The notes: generated by a model from the sequence alone, not told the origin. Positions 856 through 55,176 are shown, counted from the first letter of the stretch. The stretch: DNA of 64,000 nucleotides from a virus (IMGVR_UViG_3300046513_000221:1-64000); one strand, 5' to 3'. Made by a program: numbers and translations.

Positions 856-2721
856 TTAATTGCCGAAGCTGTTGATGATCTGCAGCGCTTGGGAGCGATT
901 CAGGACGATCCCTTTGACCTTGAAGTCCACTTCGGAGACCACATGGGTGGTGATCTCCAGACCGTCGTAGTCCACGGTCGTCTCCGCCTCGGAACCGACC
1001 GAGCGCAGGATGGTACCCAAGGCGCTAGTCAGGGACTTCAACTCGGAGAAGCTGAAGGGAACGCCCTTGATCAGGGTGAGTTGCTCGATCAGCAGCTCAT
1101 CGTCGTCTGCCGGTGCCTTGGCTTTGGCGATTGCCGCATCGACCTTGGCGGTTGCATCGATACGACGGCTGCTGGCGAGCAGATCGCTCATGGTCTTGCC
1201 TTTGGTCGGTGCCAAGGTTTCGTCTGGTGCTTTCAACATGGCATCCTTGATGGCGGCGGTTACATTGGACTGCTCGGCGGTGAGCCGAGGGGTGGATGGT
1301 ACCGTCAGGATCGGACGCACCGGGGCCGGTACTTCTTCCTTGACGATCTGATGTACCTCCTGCACATCACCCTCCGCCTCGCCGTCTTCCTTGACGAGGA
1401 ACCAGATGTTGTTGCCGGGGTACTTGTCGACCAGACCCTCCTCCTTCAGACCCTCCATCTTGCGGTGGACGGTGTGCTCCACCACGTCATAGCCCTTGCC
1501 CTCGACGTGGCGCAGGATCGAGATGATGGAGTGGGAGACCTGATCGGAGTCCTCCAGGAACTTCAGGATCGCATCGCGGAGTGGAGGGCGGGTGTCCTCG
1601 TCGTCCGTCATGTCGTTCAGCACCACGCCCGGATCGACGACCAGATCCGCAGGGTAAGGAATGCCGTCCTTCATGCGGTACTTGAAGGCACGCGATCCGG
1701 GGATCGGAGTGCGCTCGAACCAAGCCATCTTCTTGTCGCGGAAGATGTTGCCGATGCGGGTGCCGATGAAGCCCGGACGGAAGCCCGAGTTGTCCAGCAG
1801 CATCTCCACATCCTTGACGGTGTACCACTCCTGATCCTGAGTGACCTTCCAGATGCACTGGTCAAGCGAGTCCTTCCCGGTGATCTGGGTGTCGATAGTT
1901 GCCTGAATGGCAGCGACCGCCTCCTGCTGGTGGGCGTTCAGACCCGGAATCTTCTTGGTAGCGGCCATGTTACGGGCCACCGCCTCGATCGCGGCGTTGA
2001 CCGCTGGAGGGGTATCCGCCAGCTCCTCCAGAACGGTGGTCGCCAGCTTGGAGGACTTGGTCTCGCCCGGAGCCTTGATGCCCTTGCGGAGCGTGTAGTT
2101 CTTCTTGGTGCCGGTGCCACGCGCCTCGTAGTGATTCTTGTGGACGATCGTGGACATGAAGCGCTGGCGGATCACCTGACGGTTGAAGCCCAGCTCACCC
2201 AGCGTCTCGGCCATCTCGTCGAGGATGCGGGACTTGCCATCGGACATGAGCTTCCAGAGGGCGAGGTCGACGGGGTCCAGAGGGTCGATCTTCCACTCGT
2301 TCCCGGCGTATTTCGAATCTTGTTGGACTGTGTTGTGTCCGATCAGCATACGACCGGCTATGTTATGTTGCTGCATCTTACATCCCTTCAACGTATAGAT
2401 GACGGTATTTTTGACCACCGCCTTGATCATCTCCCCGCTGTTAACGAGGAAGTTGAGTATGGTCTCCACCTTGCCGCGCTCAAGCCCTTGTCGTTTCTCC
2501 ACGGAAGCGAACACCTCGTCAACGGTGCGCCCACGGAGGTCGGACATGATCGTCCAGACCAGTGCGGTCGGGTCGATCTCGGGGTCAGTCAGCATGTTAT
2601 CAGTCTCCTCGGCGATATTTTGCCCGGAGCTCTGCCTCTCCTTCATACGTGACACCTTGAACCTATCGCTCATGAGGAAGCGATTCATAAGTCCGGTGAC
2701 GACGTCGTCGGTATCAGCCAC
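856..2721 (-). CDS. large hypothetical protein (621 aa)
   Basis: GTG start at 2719-2721 preceded by GAAGGAGA RBS; protein-like composition, unlike the antisense 889..2652 ORF which is G/L/R/D/V-rich. Confidence 0.65.
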   Translation of the reverse strand: MADTDDVVTGLMNRFLMSDRFKVSRMKERQSSGQNIAEETDNMLTDPEIDPTALVWTIMSDLRGRTVDEVFASVEKRQGLERGKVETILNFLVNSGEMIKAVVKNTVIYTLKGCKMQQHNIAGRMLIGHNTVQQDSKYAGNEWKIDPLDPVDLALWKLMSDGKSRILDEMAETLGELGFNRQVIRQRFMSTIVHKNHYEARGTGTKKNYTLRKGIKAPGETKSSKLATTVLEELADTPPAVNAAIEAVARNMAATKKIPGLNAHQQEAVAAIQATIDTQITGKDSLDQCIWKVTQDQEWYTVKDVEMLLDNSGFRPGFIGTRIGNIFRDKKMAWFERTPIPGSRAFKYRMKDGIPYPADLVVDPGVVLNDMTDDEDTRPPLRDAILKFLEDSDQVSHSIISILRHVEGKGYDVVEHTVHRKMEGLKEEGLVDKYPGNNIWFLVKEDGEAEGDVQEVHQIVKEEVPAPVRPILTVPSTPRLTAEQSNVTAAIKDAMLKAPDETLAPTKGKTMSDLLASSRRIDATAKVDAAIAKAKAPADDDELLIEQLTLIKGVPFSFSELKSLTSALGTILRSVGSEAETTVDYDGLEITTHVVSEVDFKVKGIVLNRSQALQIINSFGN

Positions 2722-3773: not shown

Positions 3774-4485
3774 TTTTCTGTGTTCCCAAATGTGAGTGAT
3801 TACAAAAAATAAGAGAGATGGCCCGATGCCGAAGCACCGAGCCTCTCAACTGCTTCCCTTTTCTGGTGGAGTGGGTCGCTATCTTCTTCTCGTCTGTTGC
3901 TACGTTGGATTTTGAGGTACAGCTGTGTCGTGTGTACTGCCGATACTGCCTTTTCGACCGTGTCCAGTCTACGTTTGGGTTCCACAGGCCACCATTTCGC
4001 CTGAATCGTTAAGCACCGCCTCGTGGCGGCTCTCTGGGTGATGTGATGAGCGCGTTTCAGCCCCATCCGGTACTCGCCCGGTACGTTACTGTGCTACGAG
4101 TCATAGGGAGGAAACCATTTGTCCGTGTCCCTACGAAGTTGATCCCTCAGTCCCCGACGGTCTGAAGAATTTTGATGCAAGAAGTGAGGTTGAGGTGGGT
4201 AGCTTAAAGGCTTCTTCTCCGCTCGTGTGAAGGGGTGGAGAGAAAGGACGCCTCCCTCCTACCCGGAGAGTGGATCCCAATTAGGTGCCTCAGCGAATCG
4301 ATAAGCTGACCCACCGAGGCGAGAACGGTTCTCGAACTAGGTTCGATCCCCATTGGACCGGATTAACGGTAACCCTTTCGGGCTGCTTGAGAACGGGGGT
4401 TCCGTGGAATTCCCCGTAGTTGTTAGATGAACCTTTCAGTCCATCATCGATATAATATATCAACAAGTGACCTGCAGATACGGTC

Positions 4486-6076: not shown

Positions 6077-6415
6077 TCATTTCTTTCTGATTTCGGTTGC
6101 GTTGCTGTGCCGTCTCACCAGCGCCGTGAAGCGCTTGAGACGAGCTCCTTTGTCCTTCGTACCGAAGACCCGATCCACCAGCTTCTGAACCTCGCCGATT
6201 TCCTTCGAGTCGTGCTCGTGGAAGAGGTCATACTCCTCCTCGGTCACGGTGACCTTCCGTACTTCCATGAAGTGAGTCGCGTCAGCGGTCTTCACCCACA
6301 TGAGATAAATCCCATCGCTCCTCTTGAAGAAGGCGATCTGTTGGGGCGAGGCCTCGACCATCCGGACGAACCGGGTGGTGGGCCAAGCCTCGTACTGCTC
6401 CGGTAGCGCGCTCAT
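6077..6415 (-). CDS. hypothetical protein (112 aa)
   Basis: ATG start; stop 1 nt from the next gene. Confidence 0.55.
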   Translation of the reverse strand: MSALPEQYEAWPTTRFVRMVEASPQQIAFFKRSDGIYLMWVKTADATHFMEVRKVTVTEEEYDLFHEHDSKEIGEVQKLVDRVFGTKDKGARLKRFTALVRRHSNATEIRKK

Positions 6416-6792
6416 ACCTCGTACATACCCGGAGGCATGTATGCGCTACGGTACTCTTTCTCCACCACGCTATGGTACCGGCTGATAGCCACGAGGTTGT
6501 CGACGATCTTGACGACATCGCTGGTCAAGTCGGCGTAGCTGCGGATGTCGGTGGCCGGGTTCAGGCCGAGGCGGTCAGCCGTCTCGTGGTCAACCTCCAT
6601 CGCGTCCTCGCGGAAGAAGACGACACCGCCCGGAACAGCCATCCAGACAGCGTAGAACTTCGAGTTGCGGCGGTAGAACTCCGCGACGAACGAGGACTTG
6701 TGTACCTTCAGTGCCGCCTCCAGATCGATAGCGGTTCCCGGAGGGTGGACCATCAGCGCGCCGTGATACGGCTTGGGTGGTGTCTTGCTCAT
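6412..6792 (-). CDS. hypothetical protein (126 aa)
   Basis: Real start is the internal ATG at 6790-6792, forming an ATGA overlap with the stop of 6789..7790. The listed N-terminal extension to 7041 is P/R/G-rich out-of-frame sequence inside the upstream gene. Confidence 0.5.
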   Translation of the reverse strand: MSKTPPKPYHGALMVHPPGTAIDLEAALKVHKSSFVAEFYRRNSKFYAVWMAVPGGVVFFREDAMEVDHETADRLGLNPATDIRSYADLTSDVVKIVDNLVAISRYHSVVEKEYRSAYMPPGMYEV

Positions 6793-7790
6793 GCGTACAC
6801 CATCGCGTCGTGGTGGAACTTGCGGGACAGCTGGTGGCGCTCGGAGTCGGTACCGCGCACCCGCTGGAAGACCCGGTGGGCGCAGTGGCGTGCCTCCTCC
6901 ATCGTCTGCGAGTTGCTGAGGTGGTCGGTGAAGAAAGCGATCTCCGAAGGCTTGAGTTCCTCCTTGACAGGGCAGAACACGTAGACCATGCCGTCGTGCT
7001 TCAGCCACTTGAGGAGCCGGGTGTTGCCGATCAGATCCCACTCTGCGATCAGGGGCGACTTCAGGGCTTGCAGCATCACCTCACCGTGAGAGAGCTTCAT
7101 GCGGGTGAAGTCCTCCTCCACTGCGGCCATGTGCTTGAAGCGGTTCACCCAGTTGCTCAGAGCCTTGTAGCCCTCGGTGACGCCGCGCTTGTGGTCGGCG
7201 TAGCTCTGCTCGGTGACCTCGTTGATGCGGTTCAGCATCTGAGGCGAGAGCATCGCGGAGGGGTTGCTGAAGAAGTAGACCTTGCCCTCGAACTTGACCC
7301 AGCGGACGGCGCGGTTGTTTCCGCGAGCGTTGTCGCCGGTGTGCATGATGTCGCCGGTCCCGGATGGGGTGGTCTCCACCTCCGGCTTCGCACTGTCCTT
7401 GTACGGTGGGTAGGCCACCTTCGTGTGGTGCAGGACGCGGATCTCCTCGCCCACACGCTCGCCATCGGAGCGACGGTGCAGACGACAGCCCTCGAACAGC
7501 GTCTCGCCGAGGGTGCTGTACATCTCGTGACTCAACTGCGCGGGAGAGTGGTGCGAGGTCTGCTTGACCGGCTCCAGTTCCGCGCCGACCGGACTCATGA
7601 CGTAGAGCTCCGGGTAGTTCACTGCCAATTCCACCTCGCGGCGTACCTCGGACAGTCGTTGTTCGCCTACGCTGTTAACGATCTCCTCGACGCGGCATGT
7701 GTTGGCGAGGAGATCGTAGTGCAGGAAGGCTCGGCCTACCATCTCCCAGTCGTTCTCGGGAAGACGGAGTATGCCATTTGCTTGGATCAT
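6789..7790 (-). CDS. tandem paralogue family member 1 (333 aa)
   Basis: Shares ELAVNYPELY / W-E-x-I/V-G / MYxxL motifs with the three genes immediately downstream on the minus strand; TTTGGGAGTACC RBS. Confidence 0.65.
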   Translation of the reverse strand: MIQANGILRLPENDWEMVGRAFLHYDLLANTCRVEEIVNSVGEQRLSEVRREVELAVNYPELYVMSPVGAELEPVKQTSHHSPAQLSHEMYSTLGETLFEGCRLHRRSDGERVGEEIRVLHHTKVAYPPYKDSAKPEVETTPSGTGDIMHTGDNARGNNRAVRWVKFEGKVYFFSNPSAMLSPQMLNRINEVTEQSYADHKRGVTEGYKALSNWVNRFKHMAAVEEDFTRMKLSHGEVMLQALKSPLIAEWDLIGNTRLLKWLKHDGMVYVFCPVKEELKPSEIAFFTDHLSNSQTMEEARHCAHRVFQRVRGTDSERHQLSRKFHHDAMVYA

Positions 7791-7822
7791 TGCTTGGTAC
7801 TCCCAAAGTGAAACGGTTGTGG

Positions 7823-8593
7823 TTACTGCTTCTGCTCGATGCGGATGAGCTGGTTCTGGATCGCGGCACCGTTGCTGAGGACGATCTGGCGCAGGTAGTG
7901 GAACATGACGTCCCGATTCTCCGACTTCAGGTAGTCCGGATCCTCCATCATGGCCTTGCGGCTCAGACGACGCAGGTACTCGTACTCCTTGGTGTCGATC
8001 GTCACGGCGCGGTTCAGGCTGTCGCCGTCGTTGAAGGCGCGACCCTCCTTCAGGTTCATCATCACCCAGCGCAACGTCATGCGCGAGTCGCCAATGGAGT
8101 TCTGGTCCGGCACCGCGTAGACGAAGAAGTCCGAGAGGCGCGGATCCTCGAAGTTCGGGGAGTAGAGCGAGATCATGATGCGGTGGGTCTCCTGAATCTC
8201 GTCGTACTGCTTCGACCAGTTCTCCTGACGCTTACCGCCCAGCTTCGGCAGGATGTAGGAGACATTCGTCTTCACGTCCGTCATGATGGTGCTCTGCATG
8301 AGCGCGTGCGACAGCACCTTGTACATGAAGTGGGCGTCGTCCGACGTCTCCTCGATCGCGATCAGGGCACGGTCGTTATCGTCGTTGTAACGAACGAGGA
8401 GGAAGCGGTCGGGGTACGACAGCGCCAGCTCGACCGACTTGATGGCCTGGGTCAGACGCGGGTCGTCCATCACCAGATCCGCGAGGGCGATGCCGGACGA
8501 GCGCAGAGGCTCGTACATGGAGGCCATGCCGATCAGCTCCCAGACATTCTGGCTCTTGTTGAAACGACGTACCTTGTTTGCGACTTGGTTCAC
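7823..8593 (-). CDS. tandem paralogue family member 2 (256 aa)
   Basis: GTG start with GGGAG RBS; motifs RFNKSQNVWELIGMA, ELALSYPDRF, MYKVLSHAL. Confidence 0.65.
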   Translation of the reverse strand: MNQVANKVRRFNKSQNVWELIGMASMYEPLRSSGIALADLVMDDPRLTQAIKSVELALSYPDRFLLVRYNDDNDRALIAIEETSDDAHFMYKVLSHALMQSTIMTDVKTNVSYILPKLGGKRQENWSKQYDEIQETHRIMISLYSPNFEDPRLSDFFVYAVPDQNSIGDSRMTLRWVMMNLKEGRAFNDGDSLNRAVTIDTKEYEYLRRLSRKAMMEDPDYLKSENRDVMFHYLRQIVLSNGAAIQNQLIRIEQKQ

Positions 8594-8618
8594 GGTAGTA
8601 CTCCCAAAAGTGATGCGG

Positions 8619-9371
8619 TTAGCGCCGCTGGTTGGCGGCGAGGGCGGCGGTGTAGACTGCGCGGATGCGGTAGATCATGTAGGCGATACCCGGCATCGTC
8701 GAGTAGATCGGATTCAGCTGGGACTCCTTGCGGCTGATGTGGCGCAGGAAGGCGTACTCGGTCTTGTCGATCAGCGCCTTGGAGTGGCCGATGACGTTGA
8801 TGCGACCATTCGCGTAGATCCAGCCGATGATCATGCTGCCGTTGTCCGGGCGCATGGTGTCCGGGTAGGCGTAGATCATGTGGTCGGAGGTCTGAGCGTC
8901 CTCGCTACCGGGCGCGAACTCGGACACCATGATCCGGTGTACGCGGTTCAGGAGCTTCTTGTTCTCCAGCCAGTCAGCGCCGGTGAGGCCGTAGGCGTAA
9001 CGCTCCTCGATACCGACGTCTGCGACATCGTACTTGCCGGAAAGCAGCATCGAGAGGATCTCGTACATCTTCTCCTCGTCCAGCTCCTCGTTGCGGAACC
9101 CGATGAGTTCGCGCTTCGGATCGTTGCACTTGTACAGGTAGAAGCGGCTCGGGTGCGAGCAGATCAGCTCCGCGCTCTTCTCGCAGAACGAGGTGAACTC
9201 GTCCTGCAACACGATGCCGTTGATGTTGGCACCGGACGACAGCATGGGTTCGTGACCGAACGCCTTGCCGATCGTCTCCCAGACGCTTTGACGCTTGTTG
9301 AACTGACGGATGGTGATGCGCTCTTCCTGCCGGACGATGACGGCGAGGTTCTTCTCGGTGGCTACGTTCAT
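8619..9371 (-). CDS. tandem paralogue family member 3 (250 aa)
   Basis: Motifs RQFNKRQSVWETIGKA, ELICSHPSRF, MYEILSMLL. Confidence 0.65.
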   Translation of the reverse strand: MNVATEKNLAVIVRQEERITIRQFNKRQSVWETIGKAFGHEPMLSSGANINGIVLQDEFTSFCEKSAELICSHPSRFYLYKCNDPKRELIGFRNEELDEEKMYEILSMLLSGKYDVADVGIEERYAYGLTGADWLENKKLLNRVHRIMVSEFAPGSEDAQTSDHMIYAYPDTMRPDNGSMIIGWIYANGRINVIGHSKALIDKTEYAFLRHISRKESQLNPIYSTMPGIAYMIYRIRAVYTAALAANQRR

Positions 9372-10168
9372 ACGAAGCGGATCCTTTTGATGGAGGTGTT
9401 TGTGATGAGCTGCTCGTGCATATCTTCAACCTTGCGATCAGGCATCACGACGCTGAGGGTAGAGGTAAGATCTTTGATAATGAAGCTACCATTGACGAGT
9501 ACGTGGTTCAGAATGTGGTACATGCGCTCACCGGGTTCATCAATGTTGGCGCATGTGATGCTCATCCAACTATCGACATCTGCTCGCATGGCAAGTGCGA
9601 AACGATCAGGGTAGTTGAACGCCAGTTCGGCGACTTTGATGCGGTACTCCATCTCCTCTCGGTGTTCATTCATCAGACGATGGACGAACATGCCGCCGTG
9701 GTTGTAGGAGAGGGCTTTGCCCAGAGTCTGCCAGCGGTTAGGGTGGAAGACGAGCAGACGCTTGTTGCCGGGGTTCCTCTCCCAACCGTCACATCCCGCC
9801 AGCCACTCGGCGTTGTCCACATCGTGCTTCGGGTCGTTTAGCTGCCCGATCAGCGCCTCGCTGAAACGGTAGATCGAGTGGAAGTCGCGTTCCCGGATGT
9901 GCTGACCCAGTGCTTCTTTGTAGGAGGAACGGATCAGCCCTGCCGGGATCTTACCGCGAATGATCTCCGCATCGGGATTATCGATGGTACTGGGGATGAC
10001 GCGGGTCACCTCCGGTGCGTCCAGTGCAGCCACGGGGTTGCCAGGAACCGCACTGGACGGCTTACCGAACCCGGTTGGCACGAAGCCGTGGTTGACACCG
10101 TCGATGGCGCTTACGGTCACGTTGTTGTAAGCTTGTGCTTCACCGGGAAGACTTACCTTTTGATTCAT
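9368..10168 (-). CDS. tandem paralogue family member 4 with about 100-aa N-terminal extension (266 aa)
   Basis: Motifs NRWQTLGKA, ELAFNYPDRF, MYHILNHVL; AAGGAAAAG RBS; ATGA overlap with the next gene. Confidence 0.65.
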   Translation of the reverse strand: MNQKVSLPGEAQAYNNVTVSAIDGVNHGFVPTGFGKPSSAVPGNPVAALDAPEVTRVIPSTIDNPDAEIIRGKIPAGLIRSSYKEALGQHIRERDFHSIYRFSEALIGQLNDPKHDVDNAEWLAGCDGWERNPGNKRLLVFHPNRWQTLGKALSYNHGGMFVHRLMNEHREEMEYRIKVAELAFNYPDRFALAMRADVDSWMSITCANIDEPGERMYHILNHVLVNGSFIIKDLTSTLSVVMPDRKVEDMHEQLITNTSIKRIRFV

Positions 10169-10243
10169 GTTGCTTTTCCTTTACCTTCGGTTTCTTTACG
10201 TTTCCCATCTGGCGGCAGTGATCGCACTTGTCAGAGCACTTCT

Positions 10244-10759
10244 TCATGCTTCGTCAGCACCTATGGATTTTGCGGTCGGGAACGGCCAGGCCGCGCACGA
10301 TGCGGCCTGAGCCTTGCGCTTCGCCACCTCGGAGACCTTGGTCATGTACAGCTTCACATCGCGGGAAGCCAAGAGCTTCAGCAAAATGAAGCAACACATG
10401 ACCTCAGTGTCCTCGATACCGTGAGGGATCACCATCGGCTTGGAGGTGTCCATATCCTCCAGATAGATGCCGTCGCCGAACTTGACGCCGGTGTGCATCT
10501 CGTTGCCAATCATGTAGACAACGTCGAAGCTCTTGGCAAAAACGCGATCGGACGCGGATCGCGCCATGTTGATCATCGCTTTCAGCCTATCGGTATCGTT
10601 CGATGCATCGAACCACGGAGTCAGCTTATCGCGGATGTCTTGCATGATATTTTCGCGACCATAGTGCAGCGTACCTGCCACCATTGTGGCGTTACCGGTC
10701 TTCCACTTGTAGGGAATGACTTCGCTGTCGGGCTTTTGATCGATTTCGGTAGTTTGCAT
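10244..10759 (-). CDS. hypothetical protein (171 aa)
   Basis: Real start is MQTTEID at 10757-10759 with AAGGAAGTACC RBS; the listed 230-aa version has a spurious N-terminus. Confidence 0.55.
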   Translation of the reverse strand: MQTTEIDQKPDSEVIPYKWKTGNATMVAGTLHYGRENIMQDIRDKLTPWFDASNDTDRLKAMINMARSASDRVFAKSFDVVYMIGNEMHTGVKFGDGIYLEDMDTSKPMVIPHGIEDTEVMCCFILLKLLASRDVKLYMTKVSEVAKRKAQAASCAAWPFPTAKSIGADEA

Positions 10760-10787: not shown

Positions 10788-10994
10788 TCATTTCTTTTTC
10801 TTTTCCCACAGACCCGTCTGCTCGTTCTTCTCGTAGCCAGACTTAACGGCGGTCCATGCCGTCTTGAAGCAGACGCTCTCATCGAGTTTCCGATCGTGAG
10901 CGGCGTTGAAAGCATGCATGAAGATCTCTTGAGCATGCTCCGGCAGAACGTGCTGGACGTTCGCCGGTAGGTCGTCGATACTATTGTAGGGCAT
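10788..10994 (-). CDS. ChaB-like protein (68 aa)
   Basis: MPYNSIDDLPANVQHVLPEHAQEIFMHAFNAAHD ... KTAWTAVKSGYEK matches the ChaB family signature; AAGGAGAG RBS. The listed ORF begins 20 codons upstream. Confidence 0.6.
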   Translation of the reverse strand: MPYNSIDDLPANVQHVLPEHAQEIFMHAFNAAHDRKLDESVCFKTAWTAVKSGYEKNEQTGLWEKKKK

Positions 10995-11007
10995 GATACT
11001 CTCCTTG

Positions 11008-11862
11008 TTATGGAGTGAAATCAAAGACCTTCGAAGCACAGTAGCGCAGTTCACGCACGAAGGCCGCTTCTGCCGCCGTTCTCACGGACGGTGATTCCAG
11101 GCGCAACTGATTGCAGATACGGGCCGTCTGCCGGAGACGTCCGTAGGCCCAGCGACTCACCACCGCCACCGAGTCGTAGTGGCCCTTCAAGGCACGGATG
11201 CAGTTCTTCCGTACGGCGTCATCCAAGGTAGGACTCTGACGATGGACGGAGTTGAGGTACTTCACCATGAACTGCTGGAGCTGTACCTCGTTCAAGCTGC
11301 TCTGCTCCGGAGTGGCCTGAATGATGATCGACTGCGCCAGAGCGGAGCCGAAGTCAACGTCCAGATCGTCGGGATGACTGATGTATGTGTCACCGCCGTC
11401 CTTGGCGAACAGCACCGCGTAGAAGATGTCCGGCAGGTCATCTTCCTTGGCGATCGGGAATGGAATAACCTTGACGGCCATGCTACGCAGGTGGTCGTTG
11501 AAGGTCTGGATGCCGGTGTAGACCTCCCGGTCGTTCTCGTCCATCCCGCGCATCATGTCAGCGAACTTGCTGATGAACTCCCGACGATACGCCGGAATGA
11601 TGGCGATCGAGGAGAAGCTGAAACCGCAGTCCTCGCGGATGAAGCTCACCAGATCTTCGAAGCTCGAACCCATCTCAGGGTTGGAGCTGTTGAAAGCCAG
11701 CACATCGCAGGACATCGCGAACGCCAGCAGCTGGTTGTATTGGATGATCTCCTGATCCGGAGTCGCCAGCACGAACGGATACGACGACGGCTGCACCCCC
11801 GGATGGAAGATGAAGCTCTCGCCGAAGGGTACCATGTAGTACTCTTGGTCTTTGTCAGACAT
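11008..11862 (-). CDS. hypothetical protein (284 aa)
   Basis: Real start MSDKDQEYY at 11860-11862 with AGGAAAG RBS; the listed upstream extension is A/S/T-rich junk. Confidence 0.55.
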   Translation of the reverse strand: MSDKDQEYYMVPFGESFIFHPGVQPSSYPFVLATPDQEIIQYNQLLAFAMSCDVLAFNSSNPEMGSSFEDLVSFIREDCGFSFSSIAIIPAYRREFISKFADMMRGMDENDREVYTGIQTFNDHLRSMAVKVIPFPIAKEDDLPDIFYAVLFAKDGGDTYISHPDDLDVDFGSALAQSIIIQATPEQSSLNEVQLQQFMVKYLNSVHRQSPTLDDAVRKNCIRALKGHYDSVAVVSRWAYGRLRQTARICNQLRLESPSVRTAAEAAFVRELRYCASKVFDFTP

Positions 11863-13401: not shown

Positions 13402-13432
13402 AAAAAAAGTTGGACGGGCGAACCCGCCCAAC
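13402..13432 (-). terminator. rho-independent terminator (GTTGGGCGGG-UUCG-CCCGTCCAAC followed by a T7 run on the minus strand)
   Basis: 9-bp stem with one mismatch, UUCG tetraloop and A7 on the plus strand, 6 nt after the stop of the pilin-like micro-gene. Confidence 0.65.
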
Positions 13433-13437
13433 TGGTA

Positions 13438-13575
13438 TTACATGAAGCTGGTGATCAGGTTCTTGATCATCGGCCAGAATTTTTCAACCGCGATGGTGCC
13501 GACGATGCCAATGATGGCGAGGACGACGAGCAGTTCGATCAGCGTGAAGCCGTCGTTATTAGGACGCTGCAGCAT
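13438..13575 (-). CDS. type IV prepilin-like micro-protein (45 aa)
   Basis: Not in the ORF track (<60 aa). Minus strand encodes MLQRPNNDG|FTLIELLVVLAIIGIVGTIAVEKFWPMIKNLITSFM. Perfect AAGGAGG RBS 6 nt before the ATG. Has the class III signal peptide: short basic leader, G-1, F+1, E+5, hydrophobic alpha-1 helix. Confidence 0.5.
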   Translation of the reverse strand: MLQRPNNDGFTLIELLVVLAIIGIVGTIAVEKFWPMIKNLITSFM

Positions 13576-14144: not shown

Positions 14145-15557
14145 TTAGGCAGCTGCCTTGTCGGTGTTGCCACCGATGCGGGACATGACGTTGTCCAGCA
14201 GAGCCTTGCCTTCGGTGGTGCCGCCCAGAGCGGTGACCATGCTGCCGATGGCGCTACCGCCCTTACCGGAGAACATGTCCATCAGGTTGTTGACACCGCC
14301 CTTGATGTCGCCGCCGTTCGCCACGACGGTCATCTTGGCATGGCCCATTGCAGCAGCCATTGCGATGCCAACTTCCTTGTTTGCCGCGACCTGCTCGATG
14401 CTGATCAGGTAGGTCTGGTAGCCCTCGTCGGAGCCGATCTTCTCGGCCAGCGCGATCTGCGCTTCGACAGGAGCCATCAGCGACGCTTTCTGAGCAGCCG
14501 CTTCGGCGGTACCCTTGGCAGTGATACCTTCAGCGTTCTTCAGTGTTGCCTGCAGTTCACCGTCGGCGCGCAGGGTGGCGGCTTCTTTCTCAGCCGTCGC
14601 ATTGGTAACGCGAACCGACTTCTCGGCTTCGGCGTTCACGGTGGCGACTTCCTTGTTTTGAGCTGCCACGATCACTGCGGTCGCCTTGTTGATCTCGGCC
14701 TTCTTGACGGCGTTGACCGACTCGACGGCCATGTTGGCTTCGGCGGTGTTCTTGGCTTCAGCTGCGATACGCTGTTCGGCTTTTTGCTGCTCGATACCGA
14801 TGTCCTGCTGGGTGGTAGCGGAGCGCATACCGACCTCGCGATCCATGTCCTGCTTCGACAGGGCGATGGCGCGGGACTTCTCGATCTCAGCGGTCTCAGC
14901 GGTCTGCTGATTGGCGGCGATGGCTACGCGGGACTCGCGGTCGATGCGCGACTGTTCCTTGCGCATGATGTTGGCGATCACGTTCGAGCCGGGAGCATCG
15001 CGCAGATCCATGAACTCGATGGTCTTCACGGTGGTTACGCCCCACTCCTTCAGCTGCGCCAGTACCTCTTCGGTGAACTGCGAACCCAGCGACGAACGGG
15101 CTTCCATGATCTCTTCCAGAGTGTTGGTCGCCAGAATGCGACGAACAGCACCTTGGATGATCTGCTTCAGTTGGCTGCGCAAATCTTCAACGGAGGTCAC
15201 GCGCTGCGCAGCCAAGTTCGACTGATCGATACGGAAGAAAGCCGCGACGTCAACAACGAACGGCAGACGAGCGGAGTCGTACGCCTCGTAGTCTTTCAGA
15301 TCGATGGTGAAGTTCGATTCCGGCAGCTTGATCACGGTCAGGCCGACGACAGGGATCCAGCTCGGCCACGCGTAGTAGACGTTACCGGAGTCCTTGCTGT
15401 TGCGACCGTACGAGGTCGCGCCCAACTTGTTCTGGACAATGTGGACCATGTTGGTCGGTACGACGACGCGCAGGTTCAGCGCCCACTTGACGGTGAACAG
15501 CGCGATGATTGCCAGAATGATGACTGCGACCAAAATTACGATACCCAGAATTTCCAT
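14145..15557 (-). CDS. SPFH/band-7 (flotillin-like) membrane protein (470 aa)
   Basis: N-terminal TM helix; SPFH-like core (FTIDLKDYEAYDSARLPFVVDVAAFFRIDQ...); long Ala/Glu/Lys-rich coiled-coil; Gly-rich C-terminus. Architecture of flotillin/YqiK. Confidence 0.65.
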   Translation of the reverse strand: MEILGIVILVAVIILAIIALFTVKWALNLRVVVPTNMVHIVQNKLGATSYGRNSKDSGNVYYAWPSWIPVVGLTVIKLPESNFTIDLKDYEAYDSARLPFVVDVAAFFRIDQSNLAAQRVTSVEDLRSQLKQIIQGAVRRILATNTLEEIMEARSSLGSQFTEEVLAQLKEWGVTTVKTIEFMDLRDAPGSNVIANIMRKEQSRIDRESRVAIAANQQTAETAEIEKSRAIALSKQDMDREVGMRSATTQQDIGIEQQKAEQRIAAEAKNTAEANMAVESVNAVKKAEINKATAVIVAAQNKEVATVNAEAEKSVRVTNATAEKEAATLRADGELQATLKNAEGITAKGTAEAAAQKASLMAPVEAQIALAEKIGSDEGYQTYLISIEQVAANKEVGIAMAAAMGHAKMTVVANGGDIKGGVNNLMDMFSGKGGSAIGSMVTALGGTTEGKALLDNVMSRIGGNTDKAAA

Positions 15558-16388: not shown

Positions 16389-16398
16389 AATTATATAT
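16389..16398 (-). promoter_or_regulatory. AT-rich promoter-like motif (ATATATAATT on minus strand)
   Basis: One copy of a recurring intergenic motif; 93 nt upstream of the 16012..16296 start. Confidence 0.3.
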
Positions 16399-45849: not shown

Positions 45850-47535
45850 CTATGCCAGCAGCGCCTCCAGATCGACGATGACGTCGTTGACGTCAGGCAG
45901 ACCGAGGAGTTCCTTGCCGATTCGGATGATATCGTTCTCGGCGATGAGGCCGGGGATGATATCGTCGAGTTCCGGACGCTTGTCGCACATGATCTTGCCG
46001 ATCATGGTGTCCGCATCGATGTTACCTGCCAGAATGATCGATGGATACATGGACGATAAGTCCTCGTCCACAATATTCTCGAAGATGCGATTGGAGCGCT
46101 TGCCATCCTTGCTGATGACGATGCCGACGGCGTCCATCATCTCAGGCAGAGCCACGAATGCACCCTTGAACTTCTTCTTCTCTTCCTCTTCCTTCAGACG
46201 GTTGTGGTTGTTGGACAGGAGGAAACCCTCCTTCTCCAGAACCATCGCCGCGAAGTTACGGATCGAGGTGGTCTTGGTCATGACCTTGTTGAAGCGGGTC
46301 GCGGTCATCAGGCCCATGTTGTACAGCAGGTCGATGTCGTTGTTCTGCTCTTCGAGCTGATACAGACGGAACGAGTCATACATCGAGTACTTGAGGAAGC
46401 TCTCGTAGTTGATGTACATCGCGTCCGTGATCTCGCCCTCGTACTCATACTTACCTTCGATCCCCTCGTCGATCAGGATCGCATCCAGAGCGTACGATTC
46501 GCGCTTGCCCATCGTCGCCCGGATCTTGGCGAACTGCTCCTGCATCTCGACGAACTGCGAGTAACCTGCAACCTCCAGCTTGGTGTTCCGCTTGGTGAAG
46601 TCGGTTGCGAAGGAATCGTTCTCGATCCATGTGGACTTGTACGGCAGCTCCTTTGGACACATCACCTCTTCAGGCTTTAGCTTCAGTCGGAGCATACGGT
46701 TCTTCATGGTTACCAAGTCGAACCCGGCGTTCCAAGCACCCATGAAGTCGGGTTTGTCACGCTTCACGATCTTGAAGAAGTCCTTCAGCAGCTCCGCCTC
46801 ATCGTCGTAGATGTGTACCTCGATCGCACGCACCTTGGCGTAATCGATCTTGGAGTTTGGATCCTTCTCGTTCATCTCGTCGATGACCTGAGAGATCCAC
46901 TCATCGCCGTATTCTGCGAATGCTTCAAGGAAGTCCATCTGAGATTGGTTGTTCTCGTTCTTCAGGATGAACGAGTGGATGGTCATCGTCGGCTGGTGGA
47001 TGTACGAGATCATCGACACCGGACATGGAGCCAGCTCTGGTTCAGGAAACTCCCTGTACTCCGACACATCGACCTCAATATCGTAGAACGCCTTGGTGAT
47101 CGGCAGGACTGCGATCTGGTGACGGTTGCGGTCGAGCCACTCACGCGTCTTGTAGTCTGCCAGATCCATGTCCGTCAGGTGCAGGTTGTTGTCCTTGTGG
47201 AGGTTACGGAGTTCCTTCCACTTACCGTTGTTCTTACAAGCCTTGTAGAAGTCCATCTGGTCGGAGGCCTTAGCCATCTCATACTGCAGATTGTCGAACT
47301 TCACGGTTATCGGCTCGACCTTGTCGAACTCGATGTAATTCGCTGCCTTCTTCAGCCTGAACTCGTCCTTGGTAATGTAGAACGTGTAGGACGGATCCTC
47401 CTCGATCTCGAATTGCTTCTTGATCGTACCATCCGGTTGAAGTACGCTCTCCACATAGATGATCTTGGAGTGCTGGCGATTGTTGTCGTCACGATCGCGA
47501 ACGTGCAAGACGTTCGATAGCTGTTTTCCGCTCAT
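45850..47535 (-). CDS. family-B DNA polymerase, N-terminal part (3'-5' exonuclease domain + polymerase motif A, 561 aa)
   Basis: Exo I YDIEVD; Exo II WNAGFDLVTM; Exo III YSMYDSFRLYQL; motif A DLSSMYPSIILAGN. The protein ends about 70 aa after motif A. Confidence 0.75.
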   Translation of the reverse strand: MSGKQLSNVLHVRDRDDNNRQHSKIIYVESVLQPDGTIKKQFEIEEDPSYTFYITKDEFRLKKAANYIEFDKVEPITVKFDNLQYEMAKASDQMDFYKACKNNGKWKELRNLHKDNNLHLTDMDLADYKTREWLDRNRHQIAVLPITKAFYDIEVDVSEYREFPEPELAPCPVSMISYIHQPTMTIHSFILKNENNQSQMDFLEAFAEYGDEWISQVIDEMNEKDPNSKIDYAKVRAIEVHIYDDEAELLKDFFKIVKRDKPDFMGAWNAGFDLVTMKNRMLRLKLKPEEVMCPKELPYKSTWIENDSFATDFTKRNTKLEVAGYSQFVEMQEQFAKIRATMGKRESYALDAILIDEGIEGKYEYEGEITDAMYINYESFLKYSMYDSFRLYQLEEQNNDIDLLYNMGLMTATRFNKVMTKTTSIRNFAAMVLEKEGFLLSNNHNRLKEEEEKKKFKGAFVALPEMMDAVGIVISKDGKRSNRIFENIVDEDLSSMYPSIILAGNIDADTMIGKIMCDKRPELDDIIPGLIAENDIIRIGKELLGLPDVNDVIVDLEALLA

Positions 47536-53211: not shown

Positions 53212-55176
53212 ATGAGCGGAGTCTACCATGACAAATATTTCGAGACGCTGGAACGGCGTCTCAGCCTCGTCTGCGGCGAACTCAGCGACGAGGATCGTGC
53301 AAAGCTCCGGGAGCGCATCTGGGCGATGCGCAAGCCAATCGAACTGACGATCGAAAACAACTACAAAGACACATGGATCGATACCAACTCGGAAGAGATC
53401 CTCAACATCATCTACGACAAGAAGCCGAACATCTCCGGCTATGGCGTACTGTTCAACCACAAGCCGAACATCCCCGGTCGCGTTCTGGACTTCCTGCTGA
53501 AGGAACGTAAGGTCAAGAAGAACAAGATGTTCGACCACCTGAACGACGACGACAAGACCATGTACAACAAGCTGGACGTGGAGCAGAAGGTGCTCAAGGT
53601 TCTGGCGAATGCGTACTACGGTGCGTTCGGTCAGCGTTCGTTCCACTTCTTCAATCCGTTCCTTGGTCCATCAGTGACCTACACGGGTCAGCACATCATT
53701 CTGAGCGCGATTCTCGGCTTCGAATCGTTCATGTCGGACAACTTCGCGTTCTTCACGTTCGACCAGCTGCTGAAGTACGTGGACAACATCACTCAGGAGT
53801 TCGACGCCGAGCTGACGGCTCTGGACGAGAAGGTCACCGTCGAGCAGGTGTACGCTCGTCTGTCCGGCAAGTGCAACTTCGAGCTGACCGAGGAGCAGCA
53901 GATGGTGCTGGGCGGCGTCCTCGATGACATGCCTTACACCCAGCTGGAGCGTCTGTTCCTCAAGAACAACCTGTTCTTCCTGCTGCGTAACTCCACGGAG
54001 GTGCGTGACATCTTCGGTGAGTGCTTCAGTTCGGAATTCCTCGATCCAGACCATCCTCCGAAGGAGATCGCTGAGAACGTCGAGGCACTGAACGAGTACT
54101 TCAGCTACTTCGTCTCCTATCCGTACCAGTGGGACGACAAGTACGAGACTGCGCAGAATATCAAACGCAAAACCGTGCTGATCTCCGACACGGACTCCAC
54201 ATTCCTCAATATGGATCCTGCCGTCAAGTGGTACGAGGAAACGTTTGGTGTCAAGCTTGATAAAGTGGGCAAGATCAACGTCTGCAACATCATGGTATAC
54301 AACGTTACGAAGTTCATCGAGAAGGTGTTCTACCAGCTTACGACGAACCTGAACGTGAAGGAGAACATGCGTTCGAAGATCAATATGAAATCCGAGTTCA
54401 ACTTCTCCCGGATCATCTTGACTAAGAACAAGAAGCAGTATGCAGGTCAGATCGTTCTACAAGAAGGCAAGCTGCTCGGTAAGCCCAAGTTCGCGGTCGT
54501 CGGCCTGTCAATCAAGAAGGTCGGTACTCCTAAGATCGCTCGCAAGCGGTTCAATGACATTCTCGAAAAGGACATGTTGTTGGCCGACGTCATCGATCCG
54601 CTGGTACCGTTCATGAAGTTCATGGAGTTCGAGCGCGACATCAACAACTCGCTCCGGGCCGGTGAGTCGAGCTTCCTGAAACCGGCGCGCTTCACCGCTG
54701 AACGCGCCTACAAGAAGCCATTCACTCAGCAGACCGTTCGCGGCGTACGCCTCTGGAATGCTATCTTCCCCAACAGGAAGATCCCTAACTTCACCTCCGT
54801 CAATATGCTGAAGCTGCGTAAGTACTCGCTGCCGAAGTTCGAAGTGGACAAGGATGGCGAACCGGTAGAGAACGTCAACAAGGAAGTCGACATTCTGGAA
54901 TTCATGGAGGAGATTGCTAAGCTGAATCTCGCCGAGAATATTCTGGAGGGCATCGCCGAGTTCATCCAGACCCCGGAGATCGGCAACTACGGCATCGACG
55001 TGATCGCCATTCCGAAGGACATCGACCAGTTCCCGGAGGAGCTGGTTCCTCTGGCCGACATCAGTTCCATCATCAACGACAACATGAAGAATGGTAACAT
55101 CCTTCTGGAGTCCATTGGGTTCAAGGTAATCAAGAGCCTGAAGTACGATACGGTGAGTAACATCATCGAGATCTAA
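53212..55176 (+). CDS. family-B DNA polymerase, C-terminal part (motifs B and C, thumb; 654 aa)
   Basis: Motif B KVLANAYYGAFG (KxxxNSxYG); motif C LISDTDSTF (DTDS); GAAAGGAAGG RBS. Confidence 0.75.
   Translation: MSGVYHDKYFETLERRLSLVCGELSDEDRAKLRERIWAMRKPIELTIENNYKDTWIDTNSEEILNIIYDKKPNISGYGVLFNHKPNIPGRVLDFLLKERKVKKNKMFDHLNDDDKTMYNKLDVEQKVLKVLANAYYGAFGQRSFHFFNPFLGPSVTYTGQHIILSAILGFESFMSDNFAFFTFDQLLKYVDNITQEFDAELTALDEKVTVEQVYARLSGKCNFELTEEQQMVLGGVLDDMPYTQLERLFLKNNLFFLLRNSTEVRDIFGECFSSEFLDPDHPPKEIAENVEALNEYFSYFVSYPYQWDDKYETAQNIKRKTVLISDTDSTFLNMDPAVKWYEETFGVKLDKVGKINVCNIMVYNVTKFIEKVFYQLTTNLNVKENMRSKINMKSEFNFSRIILTKNKKQYAGQIVLQEGKLLGKPKFAVVGLSIKKVGTPKIARKRFNDILEKDMLLADVIDPLVPFMKFMEFERDINNSLRAGESSFLKPARFTAERAYKKPFTQQTVRGVRLWNAIFPNRKIPNFTSVNMLKLRKYSLPKFEVDKDGEPVENVNKEVDILEFMEEIAKLNLAENILEGIAEFIQTPEIGNYGIDVIAIPKDIDQFPEELVPLADISSIINDNMKNGNILLESIGFKVIKSLKYDTVSNIIEI

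Follow-up and report, generated by a model that had tools for sequence, protein, structure and literature searches.

The hyperplastic early and internal-protein loci of T4-like phages have conserved anchors that flank polymorphic cassettes; they are accessory and are thought to act at the host interface. In giant phages, tandem paralogs are represented by gp93-95 of phiKZ and by paralog families A and B of SPN3US (PMC5694885). The early clusters of Bacillus phage AR9 consist of dense co-directional ORFan genes (PMC5312081). The virion RNA polymerase (RNAP), which is injected, uses the early promoters of AR9; these have the form AAATATATATTAT-N6-G(+1), with a core that Yersinia phage phiR1-37 shares. 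The late promoters of AR9 have the form AACA-N6-TA/G (PMC5312081). Here we describe an array of four consecutive genes, g266, g250, g256 and g333, on the minus strand of a 64,000-nucleotide (nt) stretch of viral DNA, IMGVR_UViG_3300046513_000221:1-64000, the whole of which is termed the window. The array is a real and constrained paralog family with four slots, found in one phage clade and in an early-type accessory region, in which single slots undergo allele replacement.

As with phiKZ gp93/94/95/162/163 (PF12699) and the SPN3US A and B families, the array is made up of diverged tandem paralogs, each a few hundred residues long; it belongs to a jumbo phage whose RNA polymerases are multisubunit, and the copy number and sequence are plastic between related phages. 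However the phiKZ and SPN3US families share an N-terminal segment among paralogs, whereas here a conserved N-terminal segment is present in g266 alone. There is also no sequence similarity between these families and the array (PF12699 is unmatched at expectation values (E) up to 10), and the array lies in an early-promoter region that lacks late motifs. In general terms it resembles the T4-like loci as well, in that cassettes differ between otherwise near-identical phages. Here the proteins are unrelated to those of T4-like phages, and the units belong to one paralog family with an internal module, whose four slots are always occupied. With the AR9 and phiR1-37 early clusters, the array region shares the same ATATATTAT-N6-G promoters, on the same strand, and dense co-directional ORFan genes, but the block that contains the array has no promoter directly upstream and the array genes have no detectable homolog in phiR1-37 or AR9.

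The four genes are neighbouring and co-directional, from g266 (9368-10168) down to g333 (6789-7790). An original prediction, made from the DNA of the window, had given their coordinates, strand and lengths (333, 256, 250 and 266 amino acids (aa)), and an open reading frame (ORF) check agrees for all four. It had also proposed that they are true tandem paralogs, and BLASTP E-values and shuffle scores far above chance bear this out. Pairwise scores of 37-46 bits were observed, and shuffled sequences gave a mean of 15 and a maximum of 23. E-values of the pairs that include g256 lie between 7e-37 and 2e-7, and thus the shared motifs are not a compositional chance. The proteins g256 and g250 are homologous from end to end (239 aa aligned at 33% identity, E 7e-37), and the similarity of g256 to g266 (E 2e-10) and to g333 (E 2e-7) is limited to a module of ~100 aa. 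The weakest direct pair, g333 and g266 (E about 0.06), is bridged by g256, the hub of the pairwise similarities of the family, and by alleles from related contigs (P0002 with g333, E 9e-12; P0008 with g333, E 9.5e-6).

The module, of ~105 aa, is present in all four array proteins, and a module profile run against the six-frame translation of the window finds exactly these four, the next best match having an E of 0.29. Three motif blocks, WExxGxA, ELAxxYP and MYxxL, are common to all four genes, as had been predicted. The N-terminal position assigned to the first of them holds for g333, g256 and g250 but not for g266, where the module is C-terminal (about residues 130-245) and sits behind a 130-aa extension. 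Over 8-9 divergent family sequences the invariant residues, in g256 numbering, are W18, G22 and A24 of WExxGxA, E55, L56 and P61 of ELAxxYP, and L98 of MYxxL. The paralogs are only 25-33% identical to one another, thus the duplication is old. At the DNA level, stretches of 73-74% identity between g256 and g250 are still found at the gene period, which fits an old tandem duplication.

An AlphaFold2 model of the g256 module by itself has a predicted local distance difference test score (pLDDT) of 78.9 and a predicted template modelling score (pTM) of 0.75. The modelled topology is three helices, a hairpin, a helix and a second hairpin (helices 17-24, 37-41 and 45-59; hairpin 64-69/75-77; helix 87-99; hairpin 102-106/111-115). 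No structural neighbour of this pLDDT-79 model was found, and there was no significant similarity over the whole domain to the HK97 gp6-like head-tail adaptor fold. The model of full-length g256 is poor (pLDDT 52, with the C-terminal half below 50) and its Foldseek-PDB search is meaningless. The module is alpha/beta, without a detectable relative by sequence or predicted fold, and its invariant W, G, A, E, L, P and L are core-type and not catalytic-type residues.

Outside the module the four proteins differ in architecture. A second C-terminal domain is common to g256 and g250 and is found in part in g333 (the alignment of P0002 with g333 extends over 184 aa). A hairpin sub-domain occurs once in g256 and g250 and twice, about 100 aa apart, in g333. 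The internal duplicate in g333 (GNNRAVRWVKFEGKVYFF... and GNTRLLKWLKHDGMVYVF...) has a z of 7.8, with 0 of 500 shuffles reaching the score, and is also seen in the diverged g333 allele P0005 (z 6.0). The N-terminal leader of g266 was not found in other window proteins, including g250, g256 and g333, and a role as a shared targeting signal was therefore discarded. The isoelectric points (pI) of the array proteins are 5.9-6.6. By eye, no hydrophobic N-terminal, signal-peptide-like or membrane-like stretch is present, no signal-peptide or transmembrane predictor having been run. On pI and on a reading of the sequences, the proteins are quite possibly soluble and cytoplasmic.

The array genes show translational coupling and strong ribosome-binding sites, and they belong to a single co-directional block of closely packed genes that runs from 13389 to 4486. 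The junction of g266 and g250 is a coupled ATGA overlap, and g333 is ATGA-coupled to a downstream 126-aa gene (6412-6792). Spacers of 25 nt (g250-g256) and 32 nt (g256-g333) both carry CACTTT(T)GGGAGTAC. The spacer motif CACTTTGGGAGTAC was considered as a dedicated recombination site and dropped, since it represents ribosome-binding-site context and also precedes an unrelated 727-aa gene. Third-position GC (GC3) shows a step inside the array (6789-10168): it is 0.90 in g250, 0.90 in g256 and 0.86 in g333, and 0.69 in g266, which is like the genes upstream (0.65-0.78). The step suggests that the array spans a junction of differently sourced DNA.

The array is found in the same gene order in three lineages: L001 (24 kb); L002 with L007, plus L006; and the more diverged L005 with L004. 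In L005/L004 the gene at the g256 position is represented only by an 85-aa fragment at a contig edge, which matches the profile of the family second domain (E 1.6e-5). In this most diverged lineage only, a 35-aa CxxC...CxxC (zinc-ribbon-like) ORF is present between the g256-like and g333-like genes (L004 259-366). Between close strains the ratio of nonsynonymous to synonymous substitution rates (dN/dS) of the array genes is 0.04-0.17, and thus the genes are functional and under purifying selection. For g250 it is 0.15 in the comparison with L001 and 0.04 with L002.

Against this background single members have been replaced. In L001, DNA identity falls to chance level across the body of g266 (about 10050-9400), the protein being 43% identical there, and both flanks are 95-100% identical; the synonymous divergence (dS) of the swap is 1.0, with 0.12 in the flanks. 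The g266 alleles P0008 and P0010 are 43% and 48% identical to the window protein. Their leaders remain 93% (P0008) and 74% (P0010) identical, and the rest of the protein is 28-47% identical (28-41% in P0008). In L002 the g256 allele, P0002, is 66% identical, with g250, g266 and g333 there at 99-100%; dS is 0.57 in the swapped segment and 0.075-0.09 in its flanks. Within g256/P0002 the module is 86% identical and the C-terminal half 48-51%. The left boundary of this cassette is graded and lies inside the conserved module, and the right boundary is sharp, at the spacer before g333. The g333 allele P0005 is 66% identical, with the C-terminal extension at 47% and the other parts at 70-78%. Relative to the flanks, dS is raised 6-8 times in the swapped segments, and because of this high dS the divergent alleles are taken to have been imported by recombination and not to have evolved fast in place. 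Thus a conserved segment stands beside a strongly divergent one in a single gene, and the divergent one is replaced between near-identical genomes, as in a polymorphic cassette; the conserved segments anchor the recombination by which individual members are exchanged. The swapped alleles have dN/dS values of 0.46-0.53, the highest of the region and still below 1. In addition, 80 nt of the L002 g256 allele (1764-1843) are 79% identical to g250 of the window (8860-8939) and do not match g256; this stretch may represent gene conversion between paralogs.

The window belongs to an uncultured jumbo myovirus. Its genes for a split multisubunit RNA polymerase beta subunit, a split and divergent family-B DNA polymerase (PolB), tail sheath and major head protein support the original assignment to a phage genome. 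The major capsid protein is 46% identical to that of phiR1-37 and 36% to those of the Bacillus phages AR9 and PBS1, and the phage is distantly related to phiR1-37 and AR9. Together with PBS1 these are uracil-DNA jumbo phages. The genomes of AR9 and phiR1-37 are AT-rich, unlike the genome here, with a GC content of about 57% (51-60% in the window). The early consensus of AR9 and phiR1-37 is kept in this ~57% GC genome. Annotated phiR1-37 promoters carry ATATATTAT, and matches to ATATATTAT with at most one mismatch number 16 in the window (1.95 expected). The full early architecture, ATATAT(T/A)AT-N6-G including the G at +7, is displayed by 10 sites. Counts of sigma-70 promoter matches did not rise above shuffle expectation, and such promoters were set aside.

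The late motif is confined to 23-64 kb of the window and is found about 85 nt upstream of the capsid (49893) and sheath (63788) genes. On the minus strand of 1-23 kb, AACA-N6-TA does not occur (0 matches, with about 4 expected by composition), nor does it precede any gene in the block of the array by 130 nt or less. Since early promoters are present on the same strand and the late motif is absent over 1-23 kb, the array is placed in an early-type region. The earlier view of this part as a phage early region is supported by the early promoters at 323, 4452, 16390 and 20304 and by the absence of the late motif from the strand. For two large flanking genes, those of the 621-aa and SPFH proteins described below, no phiR1-37 counterpart was found, which places the array outside the core, in an accessory stretch of the genome. 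Feature positions are collected in Table 1.

Table 1. Array genes, their parts, and promoter and terminator motifs in the window.
Feature	Position	Strand	Remarks
g266, 266 aa	9368-10168	-	leader of 43 aa, variable N-extension, C-terminal module, short conserved tail (KRIRFV)
g266 N-terminal leader, residues 1-43, MNQKVSLPGEAQAYNNVTVSAIDGVNHGFVPTGFGKPSSAVPG	10040-10168	-	conserved while remainder diverges
g266 family module	9434-9781	-	profile match to residues 131-254 of stop-to-stop ORF; alignment
g250, 250 aa	8619-9371	-	module about residues 14-125, and second C-terminal domain
g250 family module	8997-9332	-	profile match and alignment
g250-g256 spacer motif CACTTTTGGGAGTAC	8598-8612	-	ribosome-binding-site context
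g256, 256 aa, GTG start	7823-8593	-	module residues 1-113, and second C-terminal domain
g256 family module	8255-8593	-	sequence used for structure model
g256-g333 spacer motif CACTTTGGGAGTAC	7797-7810	-	ribosome-binding-site context; sharp right-hand boundary of L002 g256 cassette
g333, 333 aa	6789-7790	-	module residues 1-104, second-domain-like region, C-terminal extension
g333 family module	7479-7790	-	profile match and alignment
g333 hairpin sub-domain copy 1, GNNRAVRWVKFEGKVYFFSNPSAMLSP	7242-7322	-	weakly resembles cell-wall/choline-binding repeat
g333 hairpin sub-domain copy 2, GNTRLLKWLKHDGMVYVFCPVKEELKP	6948-7028	-	internal repeat
Early-promoter sites	323, 4452, 16390, 20304, 24389, 30953, 38710, 43920, 47727 (-); 53148 (+)		AR9/phiR1-37-type motif
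Nearest upstream early promoter core, ATATATAAT-N6-G	16390-16398	-	AR9-type virion-RNAP consensus
Next early promoter core, ATATATTAT-N6-G	4452-4460	-	downstream; marks end of 13389-to-4486 co-directional block
Intrinsic-terminator-like hairpin and T7	13408-13433	-	free energy (dG) -17 kcal/mol; between 16390 promoter and block of the array
Late motif, extended to AACA-N6-TAGA	49893 (+), 63788 (-), 40349 (-), 40407 (+), 53100 (-), 61057 (-), 43130 (-)		upstream of capsid, sheath and other genes

The original prediction could assign the family to no known fold, and neither sequence-library nor structure searches alter this; no well-known housekeeping family was found by profile search. Word-indexed searches of 5.8 billion proteins returned only metagenome proteins of the same clade. 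Searched exhaustively with an HMMER profile, 1.84 billion representative proteins gave eight matches, six of them from the same clade. Of the other two, which were inspected, P0007 is a junk tandem repeat and P0009 is a protein of cell-wall-binding repeats that matches the short hairpin only; neither is a family member. Pfam gave no recurrent match with the four window proteins (E up to 1) or with nine divergent members (E up to 10), and one-off weak library matches to DUF1810 (E 0.08), Alpha_kinase (E 0.035), SdhE and CrpP were discarded as not recurrent. No family match was found in PHROGs or NCBIfam at stringent or permissive thresholds, none of the PADLOC-DB models of known anti-phage defence components matched eight family members (E up to 1), and the profile found nothing among PDB sequences except a weak cell-wall-binding-repeat hairpin. 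Among 50,697 phage records, megablast gave no DNA match to the array region and tblastn no match to g256. No family member was detected by IMG/VR scans with g250 and g333, by a metagenome-contig scan with the g250 alignment or, in a local profile search, within the first 50 kb of phiR1-37, and no Rfam RNA element is present in the window. The family is an orphan restricted to one small phage clade.

The reading that we favour, tentatively, is that the array encodes early, non-enzymatic host-interaction proteins in which the module is a constant scaffold and the other parts give specificity. The four proteins would be made early in infection and would bind host, or possibly phage, components without enzymatic action. 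As scaffold or docking unit the module would stay constant, and target specificity would be set by the parts that are exchanged. The array may thus form a small set of factors for host takeover or counter-defence, and their alleles would be shuffled among co-circulating phages. The swaps of single copies between near-identical phages suggest a role in dealing with the host. A bolder version is somewhat unlikely, namely that this is a new fold family of early phage effectors forming a miniature polymorphic-effector system, in which a constant docking module is joined to exchangeable specificity domains and single slots of the four are re-armed by alleles imported from co-circulating phages so as to track variable host targets, e.g., defence proteins.

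Several observations weigh against the favoured reading. A strong terminator at 13408-13433 stands between the array and the closest early promoter that can be recognised; after this terminator, in the block of the array, no promoter motif was found. Therefore the temporal class is drawn from the region and not from the operon itself, and expression of the block may depend on read-through or on a promoter of unrecognised type. The non-catalytic view leans on seven invariant residues in 8-9 sequences, and the family has no characterised relative. Values of dN/dS are 0.04-0.53 and never above 1, so that no direct signature of positive selection is seen, and three alleles per gene (n=3) are too few for site-wise selection tests. 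In the comparison with the most diverged lineage the array genes show 48-71% identity and their neighbours 33-76%; the array is not faster. Diversification in an arms race had been proposed for the array. The replacement of single members by alleles of 43-66% identity amid neighbours of 96-100% shows that diversification is real, and four members are retained in each of the three lineages. The arms-race interpretation is plausible and partly supported, short of demonstrated.

The main alternative is that the four proteins are virion-internal head or ejection proteins, packaged in the capsid by way of an N-terminal segment (a targeting signal or propeptide) and injected along with the DNA. Tandem paralogs of phiKZ-like giant phages are typically head or ejection proteins with shared N-terminal propeptides (PMC5694885), the 43-aa leader of g266 stays 74-93% identical while the remainder diverges, and injected proteins are a classic site of hypervariable alleles. 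However this leader is unique to g266 among window proteins. By eye the four N-termini show no consistent S/A/G-X-E cleavage site, short X-E motifs being too frequent to judge. No match to PF12699 or to a PHROG structural family was obtained even at E up to 10, and the array lies in a 23-kb stretch that has early promoters and lacks the late motif seen before the capsid and sheath genes. On balance a head or ejection role is unlikely.

It is rather improbable that the genes are unimportant lineage-specific duplicates, with a mosaicism that reflects general high recombination of the accessory region. Such neutrality would agree with the equally wide divergence of the neighbours from the third lineage (33-76%), with the lack of phiR1-37 homologs in the whole region and with dN/dS values below 1 everywhere. 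However each member is under clear purifying selection (dN/dS 0.04-0.17), and the four members keep the same order in three lineages despite a paralog identity of 25-33%. The translational coupling and strong ribosome-binding sites, and a cassette replacement that strikes exactly single members with sharp boundaries, also speak against it.

A role in regulating transcription by the sigma-less multisubunit RNA polymerases of the phage, the module being a divergent helical domain, winged-helix-like or sigma-like, that binds nucleic acid or polymerase, is very doubtful. The helix-helix-helix-hairpin topology of the model and the location in an early region, in a phage that relies on RNA polymerases of its own, would suit such a function. 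The proteins are however close to neutral or acidic (pI 5.9-6.6), conserved basic residues are absent from the putative recognition helix, and no helix-turn-helix (HTH) or sigma family matches in sequence. Binding of cell wall or other carbohydrate by a hairpin resembling choline/cell-wall-binding repeats is hardly credible: profile positions 164-208 (RWVKFEGKVYFF) match P0009 (E 1.6e-7, summed over 6 repeats) and the repeats of C. difficile toxin A (TcdA) (E 0.015), but no single stretch passes threshold, Pfam CW_binding_1 is unmatched, each protein has one or two isolated hairpins and no tandem ~20-aa GW...GKWYYF solenoid, no signal-peptide-like N-terminus is seen by eye, and the context is early and cytoplasmic.

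Several other genes of the window should be noted. A 35-aa Cys-rich basic micro-ORF, MKKCSDKCDHCRQMGNVKKPKVKEKQHESKGKSSR (10140-10247, minus strand), is joined to the gene upstream by ATGA coupling and runs, in another frame, over the start of g266. With the product of L005 2599-2739 it shares 63% identity (E 1e-11), and is thus better conserved than its neighbours (33% and 48%). Two genes upstream of the array is a gene for a ChaB-domain protein (10788-11054, minus strand; Pfam E 1.2e-18), whose synteny is kept in L005. A 45-aa ORF with a type-IV-pilin-like N-terminus, MLQRPNNDGFTLIELLVVLAIIGIV (13438-13575, minus strand), is the last gene before the 13408-13433 terminator. An SPFH/Band-7 (flotillin-like) protein of 470 aa (14145-15557, minus strand) matches proteins from jumbo phages of Brevundimonas, Ralstonia and Xanthomonas at about 50% identity and has no match in phiR1-37 or AR9; this gives a hint of a host among the proteobacteria and of genes shared between unrelated jumbo phages. 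A 621-aa protein (856-2721, minus strand) has a single detectable phage homolog, which comes from the Burkholderia jumbo phage FLC9 (26% identical over half the length), and it matches no Pfam or PHROG family. PolB is split into an exonuclease part and a polymerase part, encoded on opposite strands (45850-47535, minus; 53212-55176, plus); about 6 kb separates the two, and the major capsid gene is located in this interval.

The early (ATATATTAT-N6-G) and late (AACA-N6-TA) consensus sequences are retained in a high-GC relative of AR9 and phiR1-37, and thus genes of such uncultured phages could be given a temporal class from sequence alone. The array itself is a new orphan family of a familiar sort, that of diversifying accessory paralogs in a large phage. 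What is presented is a well-documented orphan family and not the discovery of a function. A jumbo phage has hundreds of genes without a known function, and it is among the early ORFans that host-takeover and counter-defence factors are expected. With four retained paralogs, a module that has no relatives in sequence or structure and allele swaps of single genes between near-identical genomes, the array is a tractable candidate. If the host-interaction reading is true, the variable domains would point to the host targets that matter here.

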